From the NCBI GenBank assembly GCA_964345045.1, contig CAYFPM010000001.1, positions 539,264-603,263 on the forward strand: a stretch of DNA of 64,000 bases. Reading direction: 5' to 3'. Under the pieces are notes generated by a model. That model was not told the DNA's origin, did no database searches, and saw only the letters and a list, made by a program, of their open reading frames with translations. Made by a program: the position numbers and the translations under genes. Source of the DNA: an uncultured Gammaproteobacteria bacterium (GTDB lineage Bacteria > Patescibacteriota > Patescibacteriia > Magasanikbacterales > UBA922). Below, in pieces: positions 2,097 to 64,000 of this stretch (its first letter is position 1; each line of letters starts with the position of its first letter).

Positions 2097-3090
2097 AATT
2101 ATTTTTAAATTCTAGGAGCAAATCTTCCAATTCTTCTAGAGAATTAACTCTTACCAATTTTCCTCGAAATTCTTTGATACCCGGAATTTCCAAACCAATT
2201 TTATTAGTTTTGAAATACCAACTAAGATGCTTGCGAAAAGTTACAATCCCCCGTTCGCCATACTGCTCTACATGCAACTTAGCATGACGCAAAACCACAT
2301 CTCCCCTTTCTTCAATTGGAACCAAGAGATCCTTCGACTCCGCTGCGCTTCGTTCAGGATGACTAAGCGCTAGTCTGAAAAACCAAGGGTTGCCAAGAGC
2401 ACCCCTTGCAATCAAAGCTCCGTCTGCATCGGTTTGTTCCAAAACTTCTTTTACTTGATATGGCTCGTGGATGTCTCCATTGGCTAGGAGCGGCACACTA
2501 GCAATTTCTTTGGCTATTTTGATCCTTCCCCAATCACTAACTCCACTATACCCTTGAGCTTTGGTGCGACCATGAATCGTTATCAAATCTGCGCCAGCTT
2601 TTTCTACCACTGGAATAAAATTTTTAAAATCATCTGGATCACTCCAACCAAGCCTTATTTTTACAGATAGAGGGGTATTACCTATAGCGGCTTTCATTTC
2701 TTTTACAATTTTGGCAGCCAGGTCTGGATCTTTCATTAAAGCGCAACCATTAAAATTGCTGGTGATTTTGTAAACCGGGCAGCCCATGTTTATATCTATA
2801 CCTTCGGGTCTGGCATGTTCCATTACAATTGCAGCAGATTTGGCCATGGTCATAGGATCGGCTCCAAAAATTTGTTGCACGATTGGTCGCTCTGCCTCTA
2901 CAAAATCTGTCATGCCCAAGGTCTTTTCGTTTTCTCGCACAATTGCTTCGCTAGATACCATTTCACGAAACACAACACTGGCTCCACCGATTTGACGCAC
3001 TATTTGGCAAAAAGCCGAATCCGTCATATCGGCCATAGGTGACAGAGCCATAATTTTACCTTTATTTTTTAGAGTTTCTTCTATCCACAT
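2086..3090 (-). CDS. dus: tRNA-dihydrouridine synthase (Dus family, TIM barrel)
   Basis: matches Dus motifs (MADMTDSAFCQIVRQ..., GIDINMGCPV, KIRLGW); the true start is probably the internal MALSP... Confidence 0.85.
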   Translation of the reverse strand: MWIEETLKNKGKIMALSPMADMTDSAFCQIVRQIGGASVVFREMVSSEAIVRENEKTLGMTDFVEAERPIVQQIFGADPMTMAKSAAIVMEHARPEGIDINMGCPVYKITSNFNGCALMKDPDLAAKIVKEMKAAIGNTPLSVKIRLGWSDPDDFKNFIPVVEKAGADLITIHGRTKAQGYSGVSDWGRIKIAKEIASVPLLANGDIHEPYQVKEVLEQTDADGALIARGALGNPWFFRLALSHPERSAAESKDLLVPIEERGDVVLRHAKLHVEQYGERGIVTFRKHLSWYFKTNKIGLEIPGIKEFRGKLVRVNSLEELEDLLLEFKNNFSK

Positions 3091-12736: not shown

Positions 12737-13114
12737 TCAAGACCTAGTTGACTCTAAAATATAAAAACAATCTTCAAGGCATTGCAGTACTGTTTCCCTT
12801 TCAAATAAAACTTCATCATTTAAAAACCTTATTACTACATACCCCTGACTACGCAAATGTAATTCTCGCCAAGTGTCATATTCTTTTTGTTCTTCATGAA
12901 TTGGGCCATCGACTTCAATAATAAGCCTCAACTCATGACAATAAAAATCTACAATAAATCTGCCAATGCTAACCTGCCTACGAAACAAATAACCAACTTT
13001 TTTGTTTCGCAATTCTTGCCACAAAACGCATTCAGCTTTAGTATTATTTCTTCTTAAGGATCTTCTTTTAAATTTTAATTCTTCGTCTTTTACATTACGC
13101 GTTCTTTTCTGCAT
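12737..13114 (-). CDS. DUF559 / Vsr-like endonuclease domain protein
   Basis: ECVLWQELRNKKVGYLFRRQ...FIVDFYCHELRLIIEVDGPIHEEQKEYD matches DUF559; flanked by GC-rich palindromes at 12702-12725 and 13149-13169. Confidence 0.8.
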   Translation of the reverse strand: MQKRTRNVKDEELKFKRRSLRRNNTKAECVLWQELRNKKVGYLFRRQVSIGRFIVDFYCHELRLIIEVDGPIHEEQKEYDTWRELHLRSQGYVVIRFLNDEVLFERETVLQCLEDCFYILESTRS

Positions 13115-16311: not shown

Positions 16312-16509
16312 ATGACTACCAAATGCAATTCTTGCGGACAAAATAGCAAAGGACATATTTGCAAGAGATGCAAGCACAAAAAAGGACTCGCAAAAGGCAA
16401 CCGCAGATGCAACTGCAGAATCTGCCAAGCTCTCAGAGCCGAAACCCACCATGAGTGGCTCGAGTGGAGAAAGCCATTCGACGTACGACAAGCAAGTCCG
16501 CATCAATAG
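16312..16509 (+). CDS. Cys-rich zinc-ribbon mini-protein (CxxC-x8-CxxC plus extra Cys); GC-rich island gene
   Basis: SD AGGAGG at 16295-16300; TTGACA at 16259. Confidence 0.4.
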   Translation: MTTKCNSCGQNSKGHICKRCKHKKGLAKGNRRCNCRICQALRAETHHEWLEWRKPFDVRQASPHQ

Positions 16510-16659: not shown

Positions 16660-16887
16660 ATGAAAATTTGTGAACTTTGCGGACATCCAAATAATGATGA
16701 AGCCAGATTTTGTGCTGGTCAAATTCGAGACGAAGTCCTAAGAGGCGTGATCAGATCCTGCCGCCACAAACTTGGGGGCACCCAAGATACTGGCTGCGGC
16801 TGCCAAACTTGCAACTATACGGCCGCCCAAAGGAATGAGGGCAACAAATCCAGGTTTGGTTTGGATGGTTCGCTGAGAGTACGATAA
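16660..16887 (+). CDS. Cys-rich zinc-ribbon mini-protein (CELCGH...RFCAG, CGCQTC); GC-rich island gene
   Basis: SD GGGGAG upstream; followed by the 16592-16615 hairpin + T-run region. Confidence 0.4.
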   Translation: MKICELCGHPNNDEARFCAGQIRDEVLRGVIRSCRHKLGGTQDTGCGCQTCNYTAAQRNEGNKSRFGLDGSLRVR

Positions 16888-19318: not shown

Positions 19319-21205
19319 ATGAATCTACTATACGAGAATTTAAAAAGCAACCCAATTGTCTATGTAACTCGAGATATCGAGCGGGCTTTGGGTTTGCCGG
19401 TAGACACACAAGGCTACTATATTATCTCAAACTCTACTCCCTTTGCCAAGAAAATTGCTAACGAAAGAAAAAATATTTTACTGGTAGAAAATAGCGAAAT
19501 TCTAGACACTTGGCAACTATTGGAAAAACCAGAAACCCAAACCTGGATAGAAGCAATCCAACCCTCCCCCCTTGTAGGGGGGAGCAAGAGGGGGGTAAAG
19601 TCAATCGTCGCCTTCAAAAACTCCAAAAAAATAGAAACTATTTGTGAAAAAAATAATTGGGATCTACTAAACCCCAGTGCCGAAGTAATCCAAAATATAG
19701 AAGGTAAAGTAACCCAAGAAGAATTCCTACCAGAACTCTCTCATCTTTACCCACCACATACAATTTCAGAACTACAAACTACAAACTACAAACTACAAAC
19801 TATCTTACAATTCAACCACTCCCACACTGGAGAAGGCACAATATTGCTTGATAATAAAAAAGAATTGGAAGAGTTAAAAAACAAGTTCCCAAAACGTGAG
19901 GTTCGTCTTACAGATTTTGTAAATGGCCAAGTTTATACCAACAATAACGTAGTAGCAAAAAATAAAGTTTTGGTTGGTAATATTAGTAAACAACTAACCG
20001 GCATTAAGCCTTATACAAATAATCCTTTTGCAACTGTTGGTAACGATTGGGGGGCAGCTGTAGATGAACTAAGTGAAAAGCAAGAAAATGAATTCGCCAA
20101 AATTGCCCAAAAAGTTGGTGAAGAATTAAGAAAGAAGAATTGGAAAGGACTGTTTGGAATTGATGTAATCGTAGAAAAAGAAACTGGTAAATTGTACTTA
20201 ATTGAAATAAATGCCAGACAACCACAGTCAGCGGTTTTTGAATCGGCCTTACAGCGAAAAGCGGAAAGCGAAAAGCAAAAAGCGATAACTATTTTTGAAG
20301 CTCATTTGGCAGCTTTGCTAAATTTGGAAGTTAATCTAGAATTAGTTGAAATTGCAGAGGGTTCACAAATTATTGATAGACGAAATGAAGATATAAAATA
20401 CGTCCAAAAACCTGCTATTAGCTTCCAGCCTTTAGCTTTTCGCTCTAATCAAACAACCCTTTCAAAAAAAGGACAATCTGTCTTAAACAACTACCTCCAC
20501 CTCCCCTTCCAAAACACTCAACCAAAAACTCCATATTTTAATAATAAAAAAAGCAAAGTTCGTGGGGGGCTTCGAGCGCTTATAGGCAAAGGTAGTCCAA
20601 CAGAGATTGTAGAAGAAGCCAAAATATTAGCTTTGAAAAAAAAAGTTGATTTTAATAAGTTAGATGAAAAAACTTTAACTAAATTTTTGGTAGACCATAA
20701 TATTGGGGTAGACTGTTCTGGATTTGTTTATCATGTTTTAAAAGCCGAAAATCCTGAAAAAATAAAAAACTTAAAATTTTCTAAATCAAAAAACCCCATC
20801 AGAAATTTTATTCGCAAATTCCGCCCAACCGAAAACACTAGTGTAAAAGTTTTGGCAGATGATAAAAATAGTAAAAAAATAGACTTAAAAGACGTACAGC
20901 CAGGTGACTTGATTACCATAATTGCCGCTGGAAAGAATGCCGATCGTGATCATGTGCTTTTGATAGACGAGGTACAAAAAAATTCTTTTGGTGAAATCAC
21001 TTTTGTGAGGTACACCCACTCACTCGACTGGAGTACCGATGGCAAATACAATCACGGCATTCGCCAAGGAACTATTGAAATTAACGATATAAACAAACCA
21101 CTTATCGAGCAGCATTGGATAGAAAGTGAAAAAACTGGCCAAGAAAACGAAACTTACGGTAGAACCCTAAGTGGCCAAACTTATCTAAGGCGTTTAAAAT
21201 ATTGA
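19319..21205 (+). CDS. fusion protein: ATP-grasp ligase domain + C-terminal NlpC/P60-like cysteine peptidase domain
   Basis: GLFGIDVIVEKETGKLYLIEINARQ (ATP-grasp); GVDCSGFVYHVL ... DHVLLIDEV (Cys/His pair); carries an in-frame GC hairpin and a 7-nt tandem repeat. Confidence 0.5.
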   Translation: MNLLYENLKSNPIVYVTRDIERALGLPVDTQGYYIISNSTPFAKKIANERKNILLVENSEILDTWQLLEKPETQTWIEAIQPSPLVGGSKRGVKSIVAFKNSKKIETICEKNNWDLLNPSAEVIQNIEGKVTQEEFLPELSHLYPPHTISELQTTNYKLQTILQFNHSHTGEGTILLDNKKELEELKNKFPKREVRLTDFVNGQVYTNNNVVAKNKVLVGNISKQLTGIKPYTNNPFATVGNDWGAAVDELSEKQENEFAKIAQKVGEELRKKNWKGLFGIDVIVEKETGKLYLIEINARQPQSAVFESALQRKAESEKQKAITIFEAHLAALLNLEVNLELVEIAEGSQIIDRRNEDIKYVQKPAISFQPLAFRSNQTTLSKKGQSVLNNYLHLPFQNTQPKTPYFNNKKSKVRGGLRALIGKGSPTEIVEEAKILALKKKVDFNKLDEKTLTKFLVDHNIGVDCSGFVYHVLKAENPEKIKNLKFSKSKNPIRNFIRKFRPTENTSVKVLADDKNSKKIDLKDVQPGDLITIIAAGKNADRDHVLLIDEVQKNSFGEITFVRYTHSLDWSTDGKYNHGIRQGTIEINDINKPLIEQHWIESEKTGQENETYGRTLSGQTYLRRLKY

Positions 21206-21279: not shown

Positions 21280-22410
21280 ATGCCAATTTCCCCAGACAAT
21301 CTAGAATTACTCAAAATAGCCATTGGATTTGGCTTATTTTCGTCTATAATCGCCTTTTTGTGGGCGCCTCTTTTGATTAAATTTTTGTACAAATACAATA
21401 TCACTCGCTGCGCCGAATACGACGCTACCCTGGCTATGGGTGCCAGAAAAGGCAAAACCGGTGTGCCAGTTATGGGAGGCTTGCTTATAGTTATCACAGT
21501 TTTGGTAATCACATATCTATTTAACTGGGAACGTAGCTTTACCTGGATGCCTATTGGCGTAATGATGCTGTCTGCTTTCTTGGGTGGGATTGACGACCTA
21601 CTCAACATCTACGGTCACAAACGTCGCCACCGCAATTTCAAACAAACTTTACGCCTAATTCGGGTACACAAACACTGGCACTATCGCTTGTGGCTAGCCA
21701 TTACCCTACCATGGACCATGTTCAAACGTATGTCACTTTGGCTAGGTTCTCACCCTGGCAAAGGTATACATGTACACGAAAAACTTATTTTACAATTCGC
21801 TGCCGGGGCTATTGCTGCTTGGTGGATTTACTTCAAACTTGGAGAAGAATGGTTAAATGTTTTTATTCCATTCGACGGCTTTATCTATTTTGGTTGGCTT
21901 ATCATTCCGCTTATTATTTTCTTTGTTATGTTTACTGCCAACGCTGTAAACGTAGCCGATGGTATGGATGGTCTAGCTGGAGGATCACTCCTAGTTACTT
22001 TTGCTGGACTTACTTTGCTTAGCTGGCTAGAGGGTTACCAAGAAATGGCTATTTTGAACGCTACGGTAGTTGGCACACTGATTGCCTATACTTATTTCAA
22101 TATCAAACCAGCCAGATTCCAAATGGGAGATGTGGGCAGCCTAGCCCTAGGTTCGCTACTTGCCATCAACGCTATTATTATCAACCGCATGCTCTTACTT
22201 CCTTTTTTTGGTTTTATTTTTTATGTAGAGCTAATCACTGTTATTATCCAAGTTTTTGGTCGTCAATTTTTGGGCAAAAGAATTTTCAAAATGGCTCCAA
22301 TTCACCATCACTTTGAAATGCGTGGCTGGAGTGAAGAAAAAACAGTAATGCGTTTTTGGATTATGCACATTGCCTTTGTCCTCTTGGGGCTTTGGGTAGC
22401 GCTTTACTAA
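21280..22410 (+). CDS. mraY: phospho-N-acetylmuramoyl-pentapeptide transferase MraY (with a basic His-rich loop insert)
   Basis: NAVNVADGMDGLAGG and APIHHHFEMRGW signatures. Confidence 0.85.
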   Translation: MPISPDNLELLKIAIGFGLFSSIIAFLWAPLLIKFLYKYNITRCAEYDATLAMGARKGKTGVPVMGGLLIVITVLVITYLFNWERSFTWMPIGVMMLSAFLGGIDDLLNIYGHKRRHRNFKQTLRLIRVHKHWHYRLWLAITLPWTMFKRMSLWLGSHPGKGIHVHEKLILQFAAGAIAAWWIYFKLGEEWLNVFIPFDGFIYFGWLIIPLIIFFVMFTANAVNVADGMDGLAGGSLLVTFAGLTLLSWLEGYQEMAILNATVVGTLIAYTYFNIKPARFQMGDVGSLALGSLLAINAIIINRMLLLPFFGFIFYVELITVIIQVFGRQFLGKRIFKMAPIHHHFEMRGWSEEKTVMRFWIMHIAFVLLGLWVALY

Positions 22411-22749
22411 GCAGAGTAAGCAAATTAGGCAGAATAAGCAGAATAACAAAACACTTAGTCTGCTTACCAACTTAATCTGCTATGTCAAAGACTTTTAAAA
22501 TATCTATCTTAATAATTTTTCTGCTAACCGGAGTTGTTTTCCATACAATTGGGAAACAAGCTTGCCCTCTAAATGACTACACACCTGGTAAATGTGAAAG
22601 ATCTTTATATTTGTAAATTAAAGGTTTTTAAAACAAAAGAACAAGCTCAAAAAGAATATGATGAGGCCGTTAAAAATCATTTTATAGGTGAAGTAACCAG
22701 ACCAACCGAGGACATAAAAAGATGTACTCATATACTTTCTTTCTAAATT

Positions 22750-25645: not shown

Positions 25646-25864
25646 CTATACTCCCCACCACATACTACTAGGATCATCGAGATCTTCACTTGAAAATTTA
25701 GGAGCTGGTATATCAACCGGTAATTCTGCTAGTCGCAAACACTGCAACAAACGAAAAGGATCTTCTATCCAGTATTCACACCAATGGCAGAACCTCCTTT
25801 CTTTGGTCTCTATTAGCTTGGCACCGCAAGTGCCACAGGTTTCTTCCACTATTCTTGCCATCAA
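25646..25864 (-). CDS. small zinc-ribbon protein (CGTCG-x11-CHWC)
   Basis: ORF track; CxxC...CxxC pattern. Confidence 0.35.
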   Translation of the reverse strand: MMARIVEETCGTCGAKLIETKERRFCHWCEYWIEDPFRLLQCLRLAELPVDIPAPKFSSEDLDDPSSMWWGV

Positions 25865-25924
25865 GCCTAATTATAGATAACATGTATCTAAATTGCAAAA
25901 ATTATATAATCGACAACAAAAAAT

Positions 25925-26010
25925 AAAGTCATCCTGAGCGTAAGCGAAGGATCCCGAGCATAGCACAAAAGTAAGGGATGCTTCGATTCCGGCTAACGCC
26001 TACACTCAGC
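25925..26010. repeat. ~86-bp MITE-like element with terminal inverted repeats GTCATCCTGAG / CTCAGCATGAC and a nested hairpin (CGAAGGATCCC / GGGATGCTTCG)
   Basis: read directly in the sequence; related copies at 63950-63990 and 45616-45640. Confidence 0.5.
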
Positions 26011-26024
26011 ATGACTACAAAAAA

Positions 26025-26189
26025 TCACTTCCCCTCATCTGTCACTTCTGCTTCTACCTTGTCTCCCTCTATATTAGTAACCATTAGAGTAATCCCGCAG
26101 GTGCCACACTCAATCACTTGATCTTTGGCCAAATTCGGGTAAGATGATAGATCTACGTCGTTTTTACACTCCGGGCAAGTTAATCTCAT
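26025..26189 (-). CDS. small zinc-ribbon protein (54 aa, CPEC-x19-CGTCG, acidic tail)
   Basis: manual translation MRLTCPECKNDVDLSSYPNLAKDQVIECGTCGITLMVTNIEGDKVEAEVTDEGK. Confidence 0.3.
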   Translation of the reverse strand: MRLTCPECKNDVDLSSYPNLAKDQVIECGTCGITLMVTNIEGDKVEAEVTDEGK

Positions 26190-26363
26190 AAATTAAAAGT
26201 ATTATATTAAATTAAGTAAAGTTTATCATTATTGAGAAAAATATCAAGATTATATACCAGTAAATAAGCAGAGTAAGCAGAGTAAGAATTAAGACATTTC
26301 GTTACTTACTCTGCTTATTACTTACTCTGCCTACTCTGTTCACCTTGCCTAAAAATTTTTAAT

Positions 26364-26398
26364 TTCGTATATTCGTACTATTCGTAATTCGTAGATAC
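26364..26398 (+). promoter_or_regulatory. four tandem TTCGTA repeats (spacing 9/9/7) ending 5 nt before the ATG at 26399
   Basis: read directly in the sequence; the same arrangement sits upstream of infB. Confidence 0.4.
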
Positions 26399-34564: not shown

Positions 34565-34738
34565 GTGAGTTACTGGGACACACTGAAACCACCAGACGGT
34601 GGCATTCGTTACGATATACCAGCTTGCAGCAAGTGTGGAAACAAACTGCAAGATAATGGCAACTGTCGTAACTGCTCCGACAGCAAGGTAGCGCGTCCAG
34701 AGAATGTTGAGCTACCCCCACCCAATTCTAAAAAGTAG
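34565..34738 (+). CDS. zinc-ribbon mini-protein (GTG start; CSKCG-x10-CRNC); GC-richer island
   Basis: SD AGGAGG at 34551-34556; manual translation. Confidence 0.35.
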   Translation: MSYWDTLKPPDGGIRYDIPACSKCGNKLQDNGNCRNCSDSKVARPENVELPPPNSKK

Positions 34739-34875: not shown

Positions 34876-35061
34876 ATGATGCTTTACGGGTACGAAAGCA
34901 AATCACGAAACTGTCCCAATTGTGGGAGAAGAATGGCCAGACATAACGATCAAGGGGATATATCTTGTATCGGCTGTGGACTGCCGGGAGAAAACCTACA
35001 AAAGAGGTTCAAAAAAGACAAAACCCCCAAGAAGAACGACGATCCCACCGACGAGAAGTAG
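34876..35061 (+). CDS. zinc-ribbon mini-protein (CPNCG-x16-CIGCG) with a lysine-rich tail
   Basis: SD AGGAGG at 34866-34871. Confidence 0.4.
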   Translation: MMLYGYESKSRNCPNCGRRMARHNDQGDISCIGCGLPGENLQKRFKKDKTPKKNDDPTDEK

Positions 35062-43723: not shown

Positions 43724-44089
43724 TTATTCTTTACGAAATGGCCAACCTTTCCCCGTGCACGCAGGACACTTATAGTTTTTCCAACTCTTTCTAAAACAGA
43801 GAGGAGCCTTTTTTTCATTGAGAGTCTGCAAAGGGTATTTGCCTGGTTCCAATATGTAGACAGTGATTTCCCCCATAAACTTATTCTTCATATAAATCCC
43901 CCCGCCTCCACATTTTTGACAAGGCTTAGAACCAACAGGTACCAACACCTGACCAGAGCCTTTGCAAACATGACAATCGTGAACTAGGCGGAAAGTAAAG
44001 AAAAAAAACTCCTTCCCTGTGTGCACCAGCTTACCGGTGCCCGAACAAAACTGGCAATCTCTAGACTCGTAATTCACTTCATGACTCAT
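43724..44089 (-). CDS. small Cys-rich protein with four DnaJ-type CxxCxGxG zinc-finger motifs
   Basis: CQFCSGTG, CHVCKGSG, CQKCGGGG, CPACTGKG. Confidence 0.5.
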   Translation of the reverse strand: MSHEVNYESRDCQFCSGTGKLVHTGKEFFFFTFRLVHDCHVCKGSGQVLVPVGSKPCQKCGGGGIYMKNKFMGEITVYILEPGKYPLQTLNEKKAPLCFRKSWKNYKCPACTGKGWPFRKE

Positions 44090-58380: not shown

Positions 58381-58436
58381 AAGAGATCGTGAGCAAATGG
58401 CTTATATATGGAGCTTTTTGTTCGCGATCTCTTTGA
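58381..58436 (+). other. 18-bp RNA hairpin in the nhaA leader (AAAGAGATCGTGAGCAAA ... TTGTTCGCGATCTCTTT) with two G-U wobbles that form only on the plus-strand RNA
   Basis: read directly in the sequence. Confidence 0.45.
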
Positions 58437-58485
58437 GATCAAATGATAATGGCGCATTTGCGCCCAACACAAGAGGAGTACCACA

Positions 58486-59736
58486 GTGTCTCACGAGAAG
58501 GAAGGGCCTCGAAGGCCAATCGACATCATCCAAGAATACTCACTCCCGCTCATCGCGGGGGTGATCGGTGCAATGTTGTGGGCCAATCTGAGCCCACACT
58601 CCTACCACGAGTTCATCCACTTCTCTCCGTTCGCGGAGGGGAACCCCCTGCACGTACTGAACTTCCACTTCCTGATGAACGACTTCGTGATGGTCTTCTT
58701 CTTCGGAATCGCTACCAAGGAGATCACCGAAGCCTGCCTCCCCGAAGGAGACCTCAACCCTCCGAGGAAGGCAGTGAACCCGCTGCTGGGAACGCTGGGA
58801 GGAGTGATTGGACCCATCGCGGTCTACAAACTCTACGTCTACTTCACGGGTGCCGAAGCCATCAGCGAAGGCTGGGGCATCCCCACCGCAACTGACATCG
58901 CGCTCGCGTGGCTACTGGCTCGTGTAGTTTTCGGGAAGAATCACCCAGCAGTGAGCTTCCTGCTCCTGTTGGCCGTGGCCGACGACGGACTCGGACTCGG
59001 CATCATCGCCGTCTTCTACCCAGATCCTTCCCACCCGGTGCAGCCAGCCTACTTGGTACTGGTGGCCATCGCCATGGCTGGCGCGTACTACTTGCGAAGG
59101 AAGAATGTACAGAACTACGGGGTCTACCTCGTAGGGCCAGGAGTTCTCTCCTGGGCCGGCCTTTTCCTGGCACACCTCCACCCAGCGCTCGCGCTGGTGT
59201 TCGTGGTTCCTTTCTTGCCCAACATGGGTCATGACGACGGCATGTACGCGGAGATGAGTACTGGAAAAACGTACCTCGATCCGCTCAACAAGTTCGAACA
59301 CGCTGTCAAGCTGCCAGTGGATCTCGGACTCTTCGGGTTCGGCCTGGCCAACGCTGGGGTGGAGTTCTCGAGCATGGGTCATGGTACCTGGGCAGTTCTG
59401 GCCGGGCTGCTACTCGGCAAGACTGTAGGTATCTTCGGCTTCTCGATGCTCGGCCACCTGAGTGGCAAGGCGCCCCTCCCCGAAGGGATGCGCTGGAACC
59501 ACTTGCTGGTCGCCGGCATCGTGGCAGGTCTCGGTCTGACCGTAGCTCTGTTCGTGGCAGGAGTCGCGTTCACCGAACCTATGTTGCAGGGTGCGGCCAA
59601 GATGGGTGCACTGCTTTCGGCATTCATTGCCCCCATCGCGGTCGTGGCAGGTTTCGTCCTGCGTGTGAAGGACGAAGACAAATCACCCGTCGATCTGAGC
59701 AGTGCTGCCGAAGCGCCAGCCACCAGCAGCAGCTGA
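58486..59736 (+). CDS. nhaA: Na+/H+ antiporter NhaA (GTG start); GC-rich island gene
   Basis: GIPTATDIALAWLLA and LLLLAVADDGLGLGIIAVFY signatures; SD AAGAGGAG at 58471-58478. Confidence 0.85.
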   Translation: MSHEKEGPRRPIDIIQEYSLPLIAGVIGAMLWANLSPHSYHEFIHFSPFAEGNPLHVLNFHFLMNDFVMVFFFGIATKEITEACLPEGDLNPPRKAVNPLLGTLGGVIGPIAVYKLYVYFTGAEAISEGWGIPTATDIALAWLLARVVFGKNHPAVSFLLLLAVADDGLGLGIIAVFYPDPSHPVQPAYLVLVAIAMAGAYYLRRKNVQNYGVYLVGPGVLSWAGLFLAHLHPALALVFVVPFLPNMGHDDGMYAEMSTGKTYLDPLNKFEHAVKLPVDLGLFGFGLANAGVEFSSMGHGTWAVLAGLLLGKTVGIFGFSMLGHLSGKAPLPEGMRWNHLLVAGIVAGLGLTVALFVAGVAFTEPMLQGAAKMGALLSAFIAPIAVVAGFVLRVKDEDKSPVDLSSAAEAPATSSS

Positions 59737-59857
59737 CCCCCACCCACCGCGTTTCCCTTCTGGTATTCTCCAGGAAGCTGTTAGAGGACACAGCGAACAC
59801 GCTATTCATTCCTATCTGTCCTCATTCCCTTTGCCCTTAAAAATATTTTAAGATCAA

Positions 59858-63376: not shown

Positions 63377-64000
63377 ATGCAGAGTCAATCTACAAACAAC
63401 TTATCTGGATTTTTGTTAGTAAACAAACCTGTCGATTGGACTAGCCATGATGTGGTTGGATATATCCGAAAAATTGTTAGAGAATTTTACAAAAAAAATA
63501 ATTTGCCAGACAAAGCAAAAAAAGTGAAGGTGGGCCACGCCGGCACTCTAGATCCATTTGCTACTGGCCTGCTTATAGTAGCCATTGGCCGCGAAGCCAC
63601 CAAACGAATTGACGAGTTTAAAAATCTGAAAAAAGAATATGTTACTACTTTGCAACTTGGAGCCACTTCCGATACTCTCGACAGAACAGGAGAAATAAAA
63701 CAATGGAACAATGGGACAATGGAAAAATTACAAACTAAGTTAAAAGAGCTGGATAAGAAAAAACTTACAAAAGTATTAAAAGAATTCATTGGAAAGCAAA
63801 CCCAAATCCCTCCCATGTACAGTGCCAAAAAAGTTGGTGGTAAAAAACTTTATGAGTTGGCTAGAAAAGGAATAGAGATTGAAAGAAAACCTTGTGAGAT
63901 TGAAATATATGATATTAAACTTTTGGAATTTCCAAGTCATCCTGATCCGCCGCAGGCAGAGAAGGATCCCAGTGGCAGTCCAGAGAGATCCTTCGTTAGC
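63377..64000 (+). CDS. truB: tRNA pseudouridine(55) synthase TruB (partial, runs off the window end); carries a GC-rich in-frame element at its 3' end
   Basis: manual translation MQSQSTNNLSGFLLVNKPVDWTSHDVV ... KVGHAGTLDPFATGLL; not in the ORF track because it has no stop. Confidence 0.85.
   Translation, partial: MQSQSTNNLSGFLLVNKPVDWTSHDVVGYIRKIVREFYKKNNLPDKAKKVKVGHAGTLDPFATGLLIVAIGREATKRIDEFKNLKKEYVTTLQLGATSDTLDRTGEIKQWNNGTMEKLQTKLKELDKKKLTKVLKEFIGKQTQIPPMYSAKKVGGKKLYELARKGIEIERKPCEIEIYDIKLLEFPSHPDPPQAEKDPSGSPERSFVS

Follow-up and report, generated by a model that had tools for sequence, protein, structure and literature searches.

A probable CGTC/TGTC-tagged hairpin repeat, arranged as an inverted dimer, beside a LysW-fold mini-gene of Candidatus Magasanikbacteria

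Repetitive extragenic palindromes (REPs) carrying a CGTC tag were described by Di Nocera, De Gregorio and Rocco in 2013 (PMC3733652). In that paper, the tag is "changed to TGTC" in many repeats and can also be CCTC, and the superfamily consists of CGTC-1 to CGTC-4, with RPE-4 and RPE-6 of R. conorii and dRS3 of Neisseria among its members. The stems start with complementary A/T and are 8-9 bp long, the loops are 4-5 nt, and the 3-nt tail fits CCA (Table 1 of PMC3733652); tails are short, and the units occur mostly as "HH" dimers with 20-100-bp spacers. The paper reports no dedicated transposase and explicitly states that the repeats are unlinked to RAYT genes (genes of REP-associated tyrosine transposases). 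It also reports that intragenic units and dimers code for 20-30 aa, and that truB is interrupted in S. maltophilia, E. litoralis and S. alaskensis, and by RPE-1 in R. conorii (PMC3733652). In this study, we analyzed a stretch of 64,000 nucleotides of contig CAYFPM010000001.1 (hereafter the window), in which an 88-bp palindromic element lies at positions 25928-26015 between two small open reading frames (ORFs). We consider that this element is probably an inverted dimer of a non-autonomous hairpin repeat of the CGTC/TGTC-tagged REP superfamily in a Candidatus Magasanikbacteria host, with a probability of roughly 0.72. The kind of selfish DNA is already known; the host lineage is new.

The nearest relatives of the TruB and of the 54-aa protein encoded in the window belong to Candidatus Magasanikbacteria, in the candidate phyla radiation (CPR, or Patescibacteria). 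Sequence identical to the window was found in contigs of the metagenome project PRJEB17505 and in one 621-kb NCBI contig. The GC content of the window is about 37%. The neighbourhood of the element consists of peptidoglycan-precursor genes, namely murB, a gene for an ATP-grasp/NlpC-P60 protein, mraY, a methyltransferase gene and a gene for a MurC/Mpl-like ligase. Two minus-strand ORFs of CxxC...CxxC proteins, of 72 aa (25646-25864) and 54 aa (26025-26189), flank the element, as the first-pass annotation, a reading of the letters that preceded our analysis, had stated.

The element had been annotated as about 86 bp long with terminal inverted repeats (TIRs) and a nested hairpin. The palindromic architecture stood, but the size is 88 bp and the 11-nt termini contain one mismatch; the element reads GTCATCCTGAG...CTCAGCATGAC. 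Pattern matches and folds resolved it into two REP-type hairpin units in inverted orientation, with their tags outward. The left unit (25928-25953, plus strand) reads GTC-ATCCT-GA-GCGTAAGC-GA-AGGAT-C, and the right unit (25977-26015, minus strand) reads GTC-ATGCT-GA-[21 nt]-GA-AGCAT-C; the spacer between them is located at 25954-25976. The computed folding energies were -36.9 kcal/mol for the plus strand (z -6.5) and -41.2 kcal/mol for the minus strand (z -5.4). A unit has a size of about 25-40 nt. Its YGTC tag is unpaired and is followed by a stem of 5 bp (ATxxT/AyyAT), by tandem G·A pairs of the sheared type, which form a 2x2 G·A/A·G internal loop, and by a variable apical stem-loop. In the right unit, the double change ATGCT/AGCAT keeps the unit's own hairpin, and two mismatches arise in the hairpin formed from arm to arm. 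The generalised unit pattern, GTCATNNTGA-N4-30-GAANNATC, gave four matches in the 64-kb window, compared with 0.01 expected from shuffles. The units of the window are those of the intergenic dimer, of a dimer in truB and a single unit in dus; the fifth arm, in truB, was recovered from contig L008. A fuzzy scan showed no copies in the window beyond the pattern matches, and ten shuffled windows gave zero.

The intragenic dimer in truB lies on the plus strand at 63936-64000, where the window ends, and the full copy occupies 63936-64012. This related copy had already been noticed; its in-frame position was confirmed, but it starts at 63936 and not at 63950. In L008, a contig of the same organism, the copy is complete, with 77 nt in the order GTCATCCTGA, 15 nt, GAAGGATC, 18 nt, GATCCTTC, 8 nt and TCAGGATGAC. 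It has perfect 10-nt termini, reads through in frame and adds about 26 aa, encoding SHPDPPQAEKDPSGSPERSFVSTQDD in the loop before CSPGTYIR. Comparison with solved structures showed 34 residues in this TruB where that of T. maritima has 9 (about 25 extra). At the corresponding place among the 21 nearest homologues (50-60% identity), 11 have no insert, five have short unrelated inserts and five have an insert of the form PPLLGEAGRGSSQ...EPPPTP. The truB gene of another Magasanikbacterium (L348 802-908, protein P0008) holds a different GC-rich palindromic dimer, in frame in the same TruB loop. Its 40-nt arms, CTCCTCCCCTCTTAGGGGAGGTTGGGAGGGGTTCG and its complement, are 83% complementary, have a 27-nt spacer and encode PPLLGEVGRGS...EPPPTPP; four further TruB proteins (P0003, P0005, P0010 and P0022) have an insert like that of P0008. 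Because two unrelated palindromic dimers occupy it in different Magasanikbacteria, the TruB loop before CS(T/P)GTYIR is a repeatedly used, structurally tolerant insertion point.

The single unit in dus (2328-2363, minus strand) is also in frame, and encodes SHPERSAAESKDL (12-13 aa) in the linker after the TIM barrel. In an alignment to DusB, the unit stands in place of the linker and lengthens the protein by about 4 residues net. Both sense-strand copies, in truB and dus, use one frame, S-H-P-D/E. Four of the six reading frames of the unit, read straight from the sequence, have no stop codon, so that a copy which lands in a surface loop or linker able to tolerate it would survive in frame, as those in truB and dus do.

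The expectation of the first-pass annotation that the element has further copies was borne out by the dus unit, which it had not listed, and by very many units elsewhere. The exact unit pattern was found in at least 120 stretches of IMG/VR viral contigs and in at least 120 stretches of species-representative genomes. The hosts belong to Chloroflexota, Acidobacteriota, Bacteroidota, Firmicutes, Patescibacteria (Saccharibacteria, Komeilibacteria, Moranbacteria), Nitrospirota, Omnitrophota, Planctomycetota, Gemmatimonadota, Proteobacteria and Bdellovibrionota, in all more than 10 bacterial phyla. In annotated collections, one unannotated Phocaeicola plasmid matched and no phage did, in a search whose sensitivity is limited by the short query. 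In low-GC genomes, the units form GC-rich islands between genes. The family statistics given below refer to loci ascertained by the exact CC/GG (ATCCT/AGGAT) unit, among the matches listed; about 1.9 Mb of fetched loci was used for the units and 240 loci for the clustering of neighbouring genes.

It could be supposed that the element is an ordinary locus-specific terminator, that its look-alikes are due to chance, and that there is no repeat family. The element is indeed a hairpin with a T-run at the 3' end of a gene, in a place where relatives carry plain terminators. The four units of the window against 0.01 expected and the hundreds of exact matches across phyla, however, both refute this explanation, and the compensated stems described next speak against chance. 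We give it virtually no credence.

Besides the ascertained CC/GG type, 108 of 117 units showed Watson-Crick-compensated stems (TC/GA 90, GC/GC 11, GT/AC 4, CT/AG 2 and TT/AA 1), where about 6% would be expected by chance; in this count, the outer stem positions of ATxxT...AyyAT were fixed by the search pattern and only the two inner positions were unconstrained. Of the pairs that close the apical hairpin, 83-100% are Watson-Crick, G-C and A-T replacing each other, and the long spacers inside units fold better than shuffles. All of eight units taken from the window and from other genomes share the common basal stem and the tandem G·A loop, and the apical hairpin is weak where the spacer is 18 nt. 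The commonest apical sequences are GCGNAGC. Because the stems are compensated and the apical pairs are Watson-Crick, it is each unit's single-strand hairpin, of either DNA or RNA, that is under selection. Partner arms are often of the form GATTCTTC...CTCAGAATGAC. G·U pairing on one strand was considered as an explanation and rejected, since every change is matched by a second one inside the arm itself (ATTCT/AGAAT), and thus each arm keeps its own hairpin.

The same covariation might be ascribed to a conserved structured RNA, either cis-regulatory or a small RNA, whose sequence would be kept by transcript function and not by the spread of DNA. The strong covariation of the stems, the conserved tandem G·A, the fold z-scores of -5.4 to -6.5 and the location 3' of a gene fit such an RNA. 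Both orientations, however, occur in the dimers, so that each strand has one arm of the G·A type and one of the C·U/U·C type. The units are also found inside coding sequences, in arrays and beside unrelated genes, and the wobble counts favour neither strand (5 vs 2 in basal stems and 7 vs about 4 in apical stems). A scan of the whole window against Rfam gave 0 matches at the gathering threshold, and relaxed scans of the element and a GC-rich relative gave sub-threshold noise of miRNA/snoRNA-type hairpins. A structured RNA is therefore very unlikely.

Where two units are paired, they are arranged tag-outward in 86 cases, tag-inward in 14 and in tandem, with the same orientation, in 15. The spacers between paired units range from 2 to 113 nt and have no common sequence. 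The first-pass annotation had called the element MITE-like, after miniature inverted-repeat transposable elements. A classical MITE would be a deletion derivative of an insertion sequence (IS) with a DDE transposase, mobilised in trans via its TIRs and leaving a target-site duplication. Our element resembles bacterial MITEs (Correia/NEMIS, RUP, Coxiella QMITEs) in size, inverted termini and hairpin potential, and those elements, too, can lie in frame in genes or supply terminators. The 11-nt termini of the 88-bp element, the perfect 10-nt termini of the truB copy and the 5-6-mers such as TYCCAA that flank the latter are consistent with a MITE. So is a 13-nt direct repeat, 92% identical (GACAACAAAAAAT / GACTACAAAAAAT), which brackets the intergenic dimer at 25912-25924 and 26013-26025 and to that extent also weighs against a REP. 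This repeat, however, is A-rich and lies 1-4 nt off the ends of the element. It may have arisen by doubling of the T-tract of an older terminator or by target duplication, or be a chance occurrence in an A-rich spacer.

MITEs are characterised by target-site duplications and by a conserved core of IS origin, whereas neither was found here. No flanking direct repeat of at least 3 nt accompanies 77 of 85 distinct dimers, a distribution equal to that of the shuffled control, and no transposase recurs nearby. Moreover, each supposed TIR is an independent, self-folding hairpin with a covarying stem, and single units and alternating arrays occur. The element is thus not MITE-like in the transposon sense, and a classical MITE appears highly improbable.

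The apical loops GCGNAGC and GCGNNAGC belong to the classic mini-hairpins that are ultra-stable as DNA, in which tandem G·A is stable as well. Both features would suit a REP of the GTAG type, or a REPIN (a REP doublet forming a hairpin), mobilised by a Y1 HUH transposase that recognises the tag and the foot of a single-stranded DNA hairpin. The GTAG REPs, the bacterial interspersed mosaic elements (BIMEs) and the REPINs of E. coli and Pseudomonas resemble our repeat in having a tag and a hairpin unit, in dimers that fold singly or as one long hairpin, and in sites downstream of genes, for which roles as terminators or mRNA stabilisers were proposed. An array in a Lachnospiraceae metagenome-assembled genome (L183 7514-7723) alternates units with ATCCT and ATTCT stems in opposite orientations and is BIME-like, the two unit types being comparable to the Y and Z REPs of E. 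coli. The short tag 5' of the hairpin foot and the inverted dimers are like the published architecture (PMC6006769).

The tag, however, is YGTC here and not GT[AG]G. A phmmer search, which is a weak test of low sensitivity, detected no IS200/RAYT-like ORF either in the window or across the 1.9 Mb of flanking loci. More generally, clustering of the ORFs at the 240 loci revealed no protein family that recurs within 400 bp of the units; phage structural genes recurred in the viral set only, and an association with GIY-YIG or DUF559 genes was not borne out by this clustering. The published CGTC REPs are likewise unlinked to RAYT genes (PMC3733652). In addition, the units are nearly identical across more than 10 phyla, unlike the lineage-specific pairs of REP and RAYT. 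These facts suggest that mobilisation as a GTAG-type REP is unlikely.

We now return to the CGTC/TGTC-tagged superfamily, to which we assign the element. Among 435 distinct units, GTC is preceded by T in 347 cases, by C in 69, by A in 11 and by G in 8, so that 96% carry YGTC (TGTC 80%, CGTC 16%). Our repeat shares with the published CGTC REPs (PMC3733652) the unpaired YGTC tag, the A/T start of the stem, the short unpaired tail, the lack of a dedicated transposase, the in-frame intragenic units and dimers, and a truB gene that is repeatedly struck. Inverted dimers prevail in both; pairs in one orientation are rare here, and head-to-tail pairs are negligible in the published families. String searches of the literature for the motif and for the encoded peptides gave no relevant paper, a search linking RPE or REPIN with CPR gave no match, and the motif is absent from RepRanger 2025 and from the HUH phylogenomics paper.

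A further likeness is to the Rickettsia palindromic elements (RPEs), reportedly described by Ogata et al. in 2000. Both are palindromic insertions in frame in housekeeping genes of a small, host-dependent genome, and place the peptide in a loop. They differ in that RPE-1, of about 100-150 bp, belongs to a different family, whereas the dimer here has 77 nt, and in that only two intragenic copies are present here within 64 kb.

Several points weigh against our assignment. The stems of the published CGTC REPs are uninterrupted over 8-9 bp, with loops of 4-5 nt and the tail CCA (PMC3733652). In our repeat, in contrast, 5 bp are followed by G·A G·A and then by 2-3 bp (9-10 stacked positions). The apical hairpin ranges from 7 to about 25 nt; a short class of units has loops of 3-4 nt, and in a long class the apical hairpins are longer. 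The tail here is CTN or CCN (CTC, CTT, CTG, CTA, CCG or CCC), and CCA occurs in 4 of the 435 units. The superfamily tag is carried by the family as a whole, whereas in the five units of this genome GTC is kept but the base in front of it is A or G instead of C or T, a class that makes up about 4% of units. The copies of the window differ greatly among themselves, which suggests that they are old or degenerate, and they show no sign of recent mobility. The locus is identical in all six metagenome contigs of the strain, from four sequencing runs, and these contigs are therefore uninformative on mobility.

Because of the interrupted stem, the free apical hairpin, the CTN/CCN tail and the wider host range, we regard the repeat as probably a new family or a variant within the superfamily, rather than one of CGTC-1 to CGTC-4. 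As to hosts, the repeat goes beyond the five phyla given in PMC3733652 (Patescibacteria, Chloroflexota, Acidobacteriota, Firmicutes and others are added).

From the patterns and folds we infer that the units fold in vivo as single strands, either DNA or RNA, and how they spread. The units would spread without a gene of their own. No target-site duplication is left behind, and the units accumulate chiefly as tag-outward dimers between genes. A bolder proposal is that YGTC-ATCCT-GA...GA-AGGAT is one near-invariant REP family, common to more than 10 phyla and to phage-like contigs, which either moves horizontally, for example with phages, or owes its copying to some function that all hosts have, instead of to a dedicated transposase. 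We put this forward tentatively, as a rather doubtful possibility.

At the locus itself, the dimer is close to the 3' end of the 54-aa gene. On the transcript strand, it starts 9 nt past the stop codon, folds with -41.2 kcal/mol and is followed by UUUAUUUUUU; the T-tract directly 3' of the dimer hairpin lies at 25912-25927 (minus strand) and reads CUUUAUUUUUUGUUGUC. As judged from the sequence, the dimer and the T-tract most likely act as an intrinsic terminator or as a 3' protective hairpin of the 54-aa gene. Two observations count against this role. A simple terminator scan did not list the dimer, because its stem and loop exceed the limits of the scan, and dimers in other genomes often have no T-run.

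In five lineages, the window included, the 54-aa gene is divergent from a gene for a ThrC-like pyridoxal-phosphate (PLP) enzyme, hereafter PALP, and convergent with the gene for the MurC/Mpl-like ligase. The homologues in the four other lineages are 70-83% identical, and the 54-aa gene is located there at L130 4001-4165, L133 4001-4165, L344 3001-3165 and L347 3001-3165. Between the 54-aa gene and the ligase gene, L130 and L347 have a spacer of about 35-50 bp (with an ordinary terminator hairpin inside it in L130), L133 has a NUDIX gene and L344 has a 23S-rRNA-IVP gene. A plain hairpin with a T-run is visible after the 54-aa gene in two relatives (L130 and L133). Among the five lineages compared, the REP dimer and the 72-aa ORF occupy the slot in the window's genome only. 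The slot that holds the dimer, directly past the stop codon of this conserved mini-gene for a LysW-fold protein, is lineage-variable. The first-pass annotation had described the two zinc-ribbon genes as flanking the element; they do not form a pair, nor are they specifically linked to it, as the 54-aa gene is conserved in relatives without both the element and the 72-aa ORF.

The 54-aa gene (26025-26189, minus strand) encodes a zinc ribbon with the spacing CxxC-x18-CxxC. It has 126 homologues with 57-83% identity, nearly all of 54 aa, whereas the 72-aa ORF has none, so that the conservation in relatives foreseen for both mini-ORFs applies to the former and not to the latter. The motif CPECKN...EC..CGITL and the C-terminal (D/E)EGK are invariant in the family (20 aligned homologues for the C-terminus). 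The protein scored 30.4 bits against the Pfam family Zn_ribbon_LysW (PF21344; cut-off 27), and its profile matched 5K2M and 3WWL. An AlphaFold (AF2) model with a pLDDT (predicted local distance difference test) of 88 had LysW proteins as all of its top five PDB matches (3WWN, 5EIO, 3WWL and 5K2M among them; TM 0.68-0.76). The earlier question whether the mini-proteins are LysW-like is thus answered in the affirmative for the 54-aa protein. Against the NCBIfam models of LysW, the scores remained under the cut-offs (TIGR01206, 19.5 vs 53.2; NF041070, 27.2 vs 75).

In LysW, the C-terminal motif is EDWGE and the terminal Glu carries the substrate. The 54-aa protein resembles this amino-group carrier protein in its 54-residue zinc-ribbon fold and its acidic C-terminal tail, but it ends in (D/E)EGK and not in EDWGE. 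It also differs in that no lysX/Y/Z/J/K set lies beside its gene, the neighbours being those for the ThrC-like PLP enzyme, the MurC/Mpl-like ligase, a methyltransferase and MraY. A gene for a RimK-type ATP-grasp protein is found three genes from the 54-aa gene, in one lineage only (L130-L132). The modelled protein has the LysW fold; it is not a demonstrated amino-group carrier, because it is without the EDWGE terminus and the lysXYZJK partners. The family might act as a carrier-like partner in the chemistry of cell-wall precursors.

The 72-aa ORF (25646-25864, minus strand; called as 71 aa) is an orphan with the spacing CxxC-x14-CxxC, located in the variable slot that separates the 54-aa gene from the gene for the Mur ligase. 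No homologue was found among 5.8 billion or 1.84 billion proteins, and no Pfam, PHROG or other curated family matched above its cut-off. The codon score of 0.11 is between that of real genes (0.27±0.14) and that of off-frame sequence (-0.34±0.17), and the ORF was called as a gene on contigs L001-L006. A promoter-like site, TTGCAA-17-TATAAT (25870-25898, minus strand), which is a match to the consensus only, lies 6-9 nt upstream of the start codon and would imply an almost leaderless transcript. The ORF may be a young, lineage-specific gene.

Six zinc-ribbon mini-proteins had been counted in the window by the first-pass annotation. Six small CxxC...CxxC ORFs do exist, but they are unrelated to one another, with no sign of paralogy among them beyond the CxxC knuckles. 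The four that remain (57-75 aa) lie on the plus strand at 16312-16509, 16660-16887, 34565-34738 and 34876-35061, and their GC content of 0.46-0.49 is above the genome average. All four remained under the Pfam cut-offs, have codon scores close to zero and are mutually unrelated. On contig L001, genes of 68 and 75 aa were called on the matching strand at about the places of the ORFs 16312-16509 and 16660-16887.

On the other side of the 54-aa gene there is a hairpin of a different kind. At 26263-26339, between the divergent promoter-like sites of the 54-aa and PALP genes, 9-mers of TAAGCAGAG form two units in the left arm and about three inverted units in the right arm. The perfect 15-nt inverted repeat that had been annotated near 26264-26330 is present at 26263-26277 and 26305-26319 (AATAAGCAGAGTAAG/CTTACTCTGCTTATT), inside a 25-nt pair that is 88% complementary; the structure folds with -30.3 kcal/mol (z -5.7). 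The 9-mer repeats reported after mraY are present as well. They form GCAGARTAA units at 22409-22465, after the stop codon of mraY, and belong to a second hairpin of TAAGCAGAR units (22409-22480), which starts at that stop codon and folds with -24.5 kcal/mol (z -3.65). These are the only two loci of the window with TAAGCAGAR-array hairpins, and GCAGAGTAA arrays recur elsewhere.

A scan of metagenomes with an exact 18-mer found 89 stretches, of which about 20 have the layout of inverted arrays and the rest are plain tandem arrays or single matches. The cases with inverted arrays, about 20, are in low-GC contigs at the boundaries of genes; about half of them follow a co-oriented stop codon and about half adjoin a divergent start. 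In the close relative L344, similar units are located right after the stop codon of the 54-aa gene. The GCAGAGTAA hairpins are a second, untagged palindromic repeat family. The 9-mers were also considered as DnaA boxes or CIRCE; they do not match these sequences, and the GC skew does not switch anywhere in the window.

In thirteen of the metagenome loci (L257, L276, L277, L300, L302, L306, L317, L320, L329, L334, L338, L339 and L341), hairpins were observed, at gene boundaries of low-GC contigs, in which TAAGCAGAG arrays face CTTAATCTGCTTA arrays. In these hairpins, a G·A mismatch recurs because the A in CTTAATCTGC stands opposite the G of GCAGAGTAAG. In the window, TTCGTA is repeated in a short run (TTTCGTATATTCGTACTATTCGTAATTCGTAG) at 26360-26396, directly upstream of the PALP start codon and overlapping the promoter-like -10 region.

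Some other features of the window are recorded here. The ATP-grasp/NlpC-P60 protein mentioned above (19319-21205, plus strand, 628 aa) is encoded just upstream of mraY, has an ATP-grasp domain and a weak NlpC/P60 match, and may be a fusion of a peptide-stem ligase and a hydrolase. A 121-aa protein (43724-44089, minus strand) has four CxxCxGxG-type motifs and the central zinc-finger domain of DnaJ (38.6 bits; cut-off 32.7), and is without a J domain. A DUF559 gene (Vsr-like endonuclease, 125 aa) is located at 12737-13114 on the minus strand with no REP unit adjoining; DUF559 is a type of small selfish gene that often occurs in multiple copies. Two GC-rich islands at 1-2000 and 58400-59800 (0.50-0.56 vs 0.37 for the genome) are possibly acquired DNA. 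Of the ORFs in these islands, 768-1949 (393 aa) had no Pfam hit and 58486-59736 encodes an NhaA Na+/H+ antiporter; a TnpB-like identity, considered for both, was rejected on these grounds. A tRNA/tmRNA scan of the window found none.

A side result of this study is a conserved, uncharacterised family of LysW-fold mini-proteins with a fixed (D/E)EGK end, encoded beside peptidoglycan-precursor genes in CPR bacteria. The sharp definition of the repeat unit (tag, 5-bp stem, tandem G·A and free apical hairpin) can be used for repeat masking. When unmasked, such repeats yield spurious peptides of the HPERSEGS, VILSxAKDL and SLRMT types, as well as false associations such as a "zinc-ribbon neighbourhood".

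If the assignment is correct, the CGTC/TGTC-tagged group of REPs extends to many more phyla, and the ultra-small genomes of CPR bacteria (about 0.6-1 Mb) still carry selfish palindromic repeats. These repeats would be tolerated inside essential tRNA-modification genes of CPR, as are the RPEs in Rickettsia. If a single family should indeed be common to these phyla, the minimal CPR genomes, with their few candidate enzymes, would make the spread of CGTC REPs and RPEs and their entry into genes in frame directly testable.

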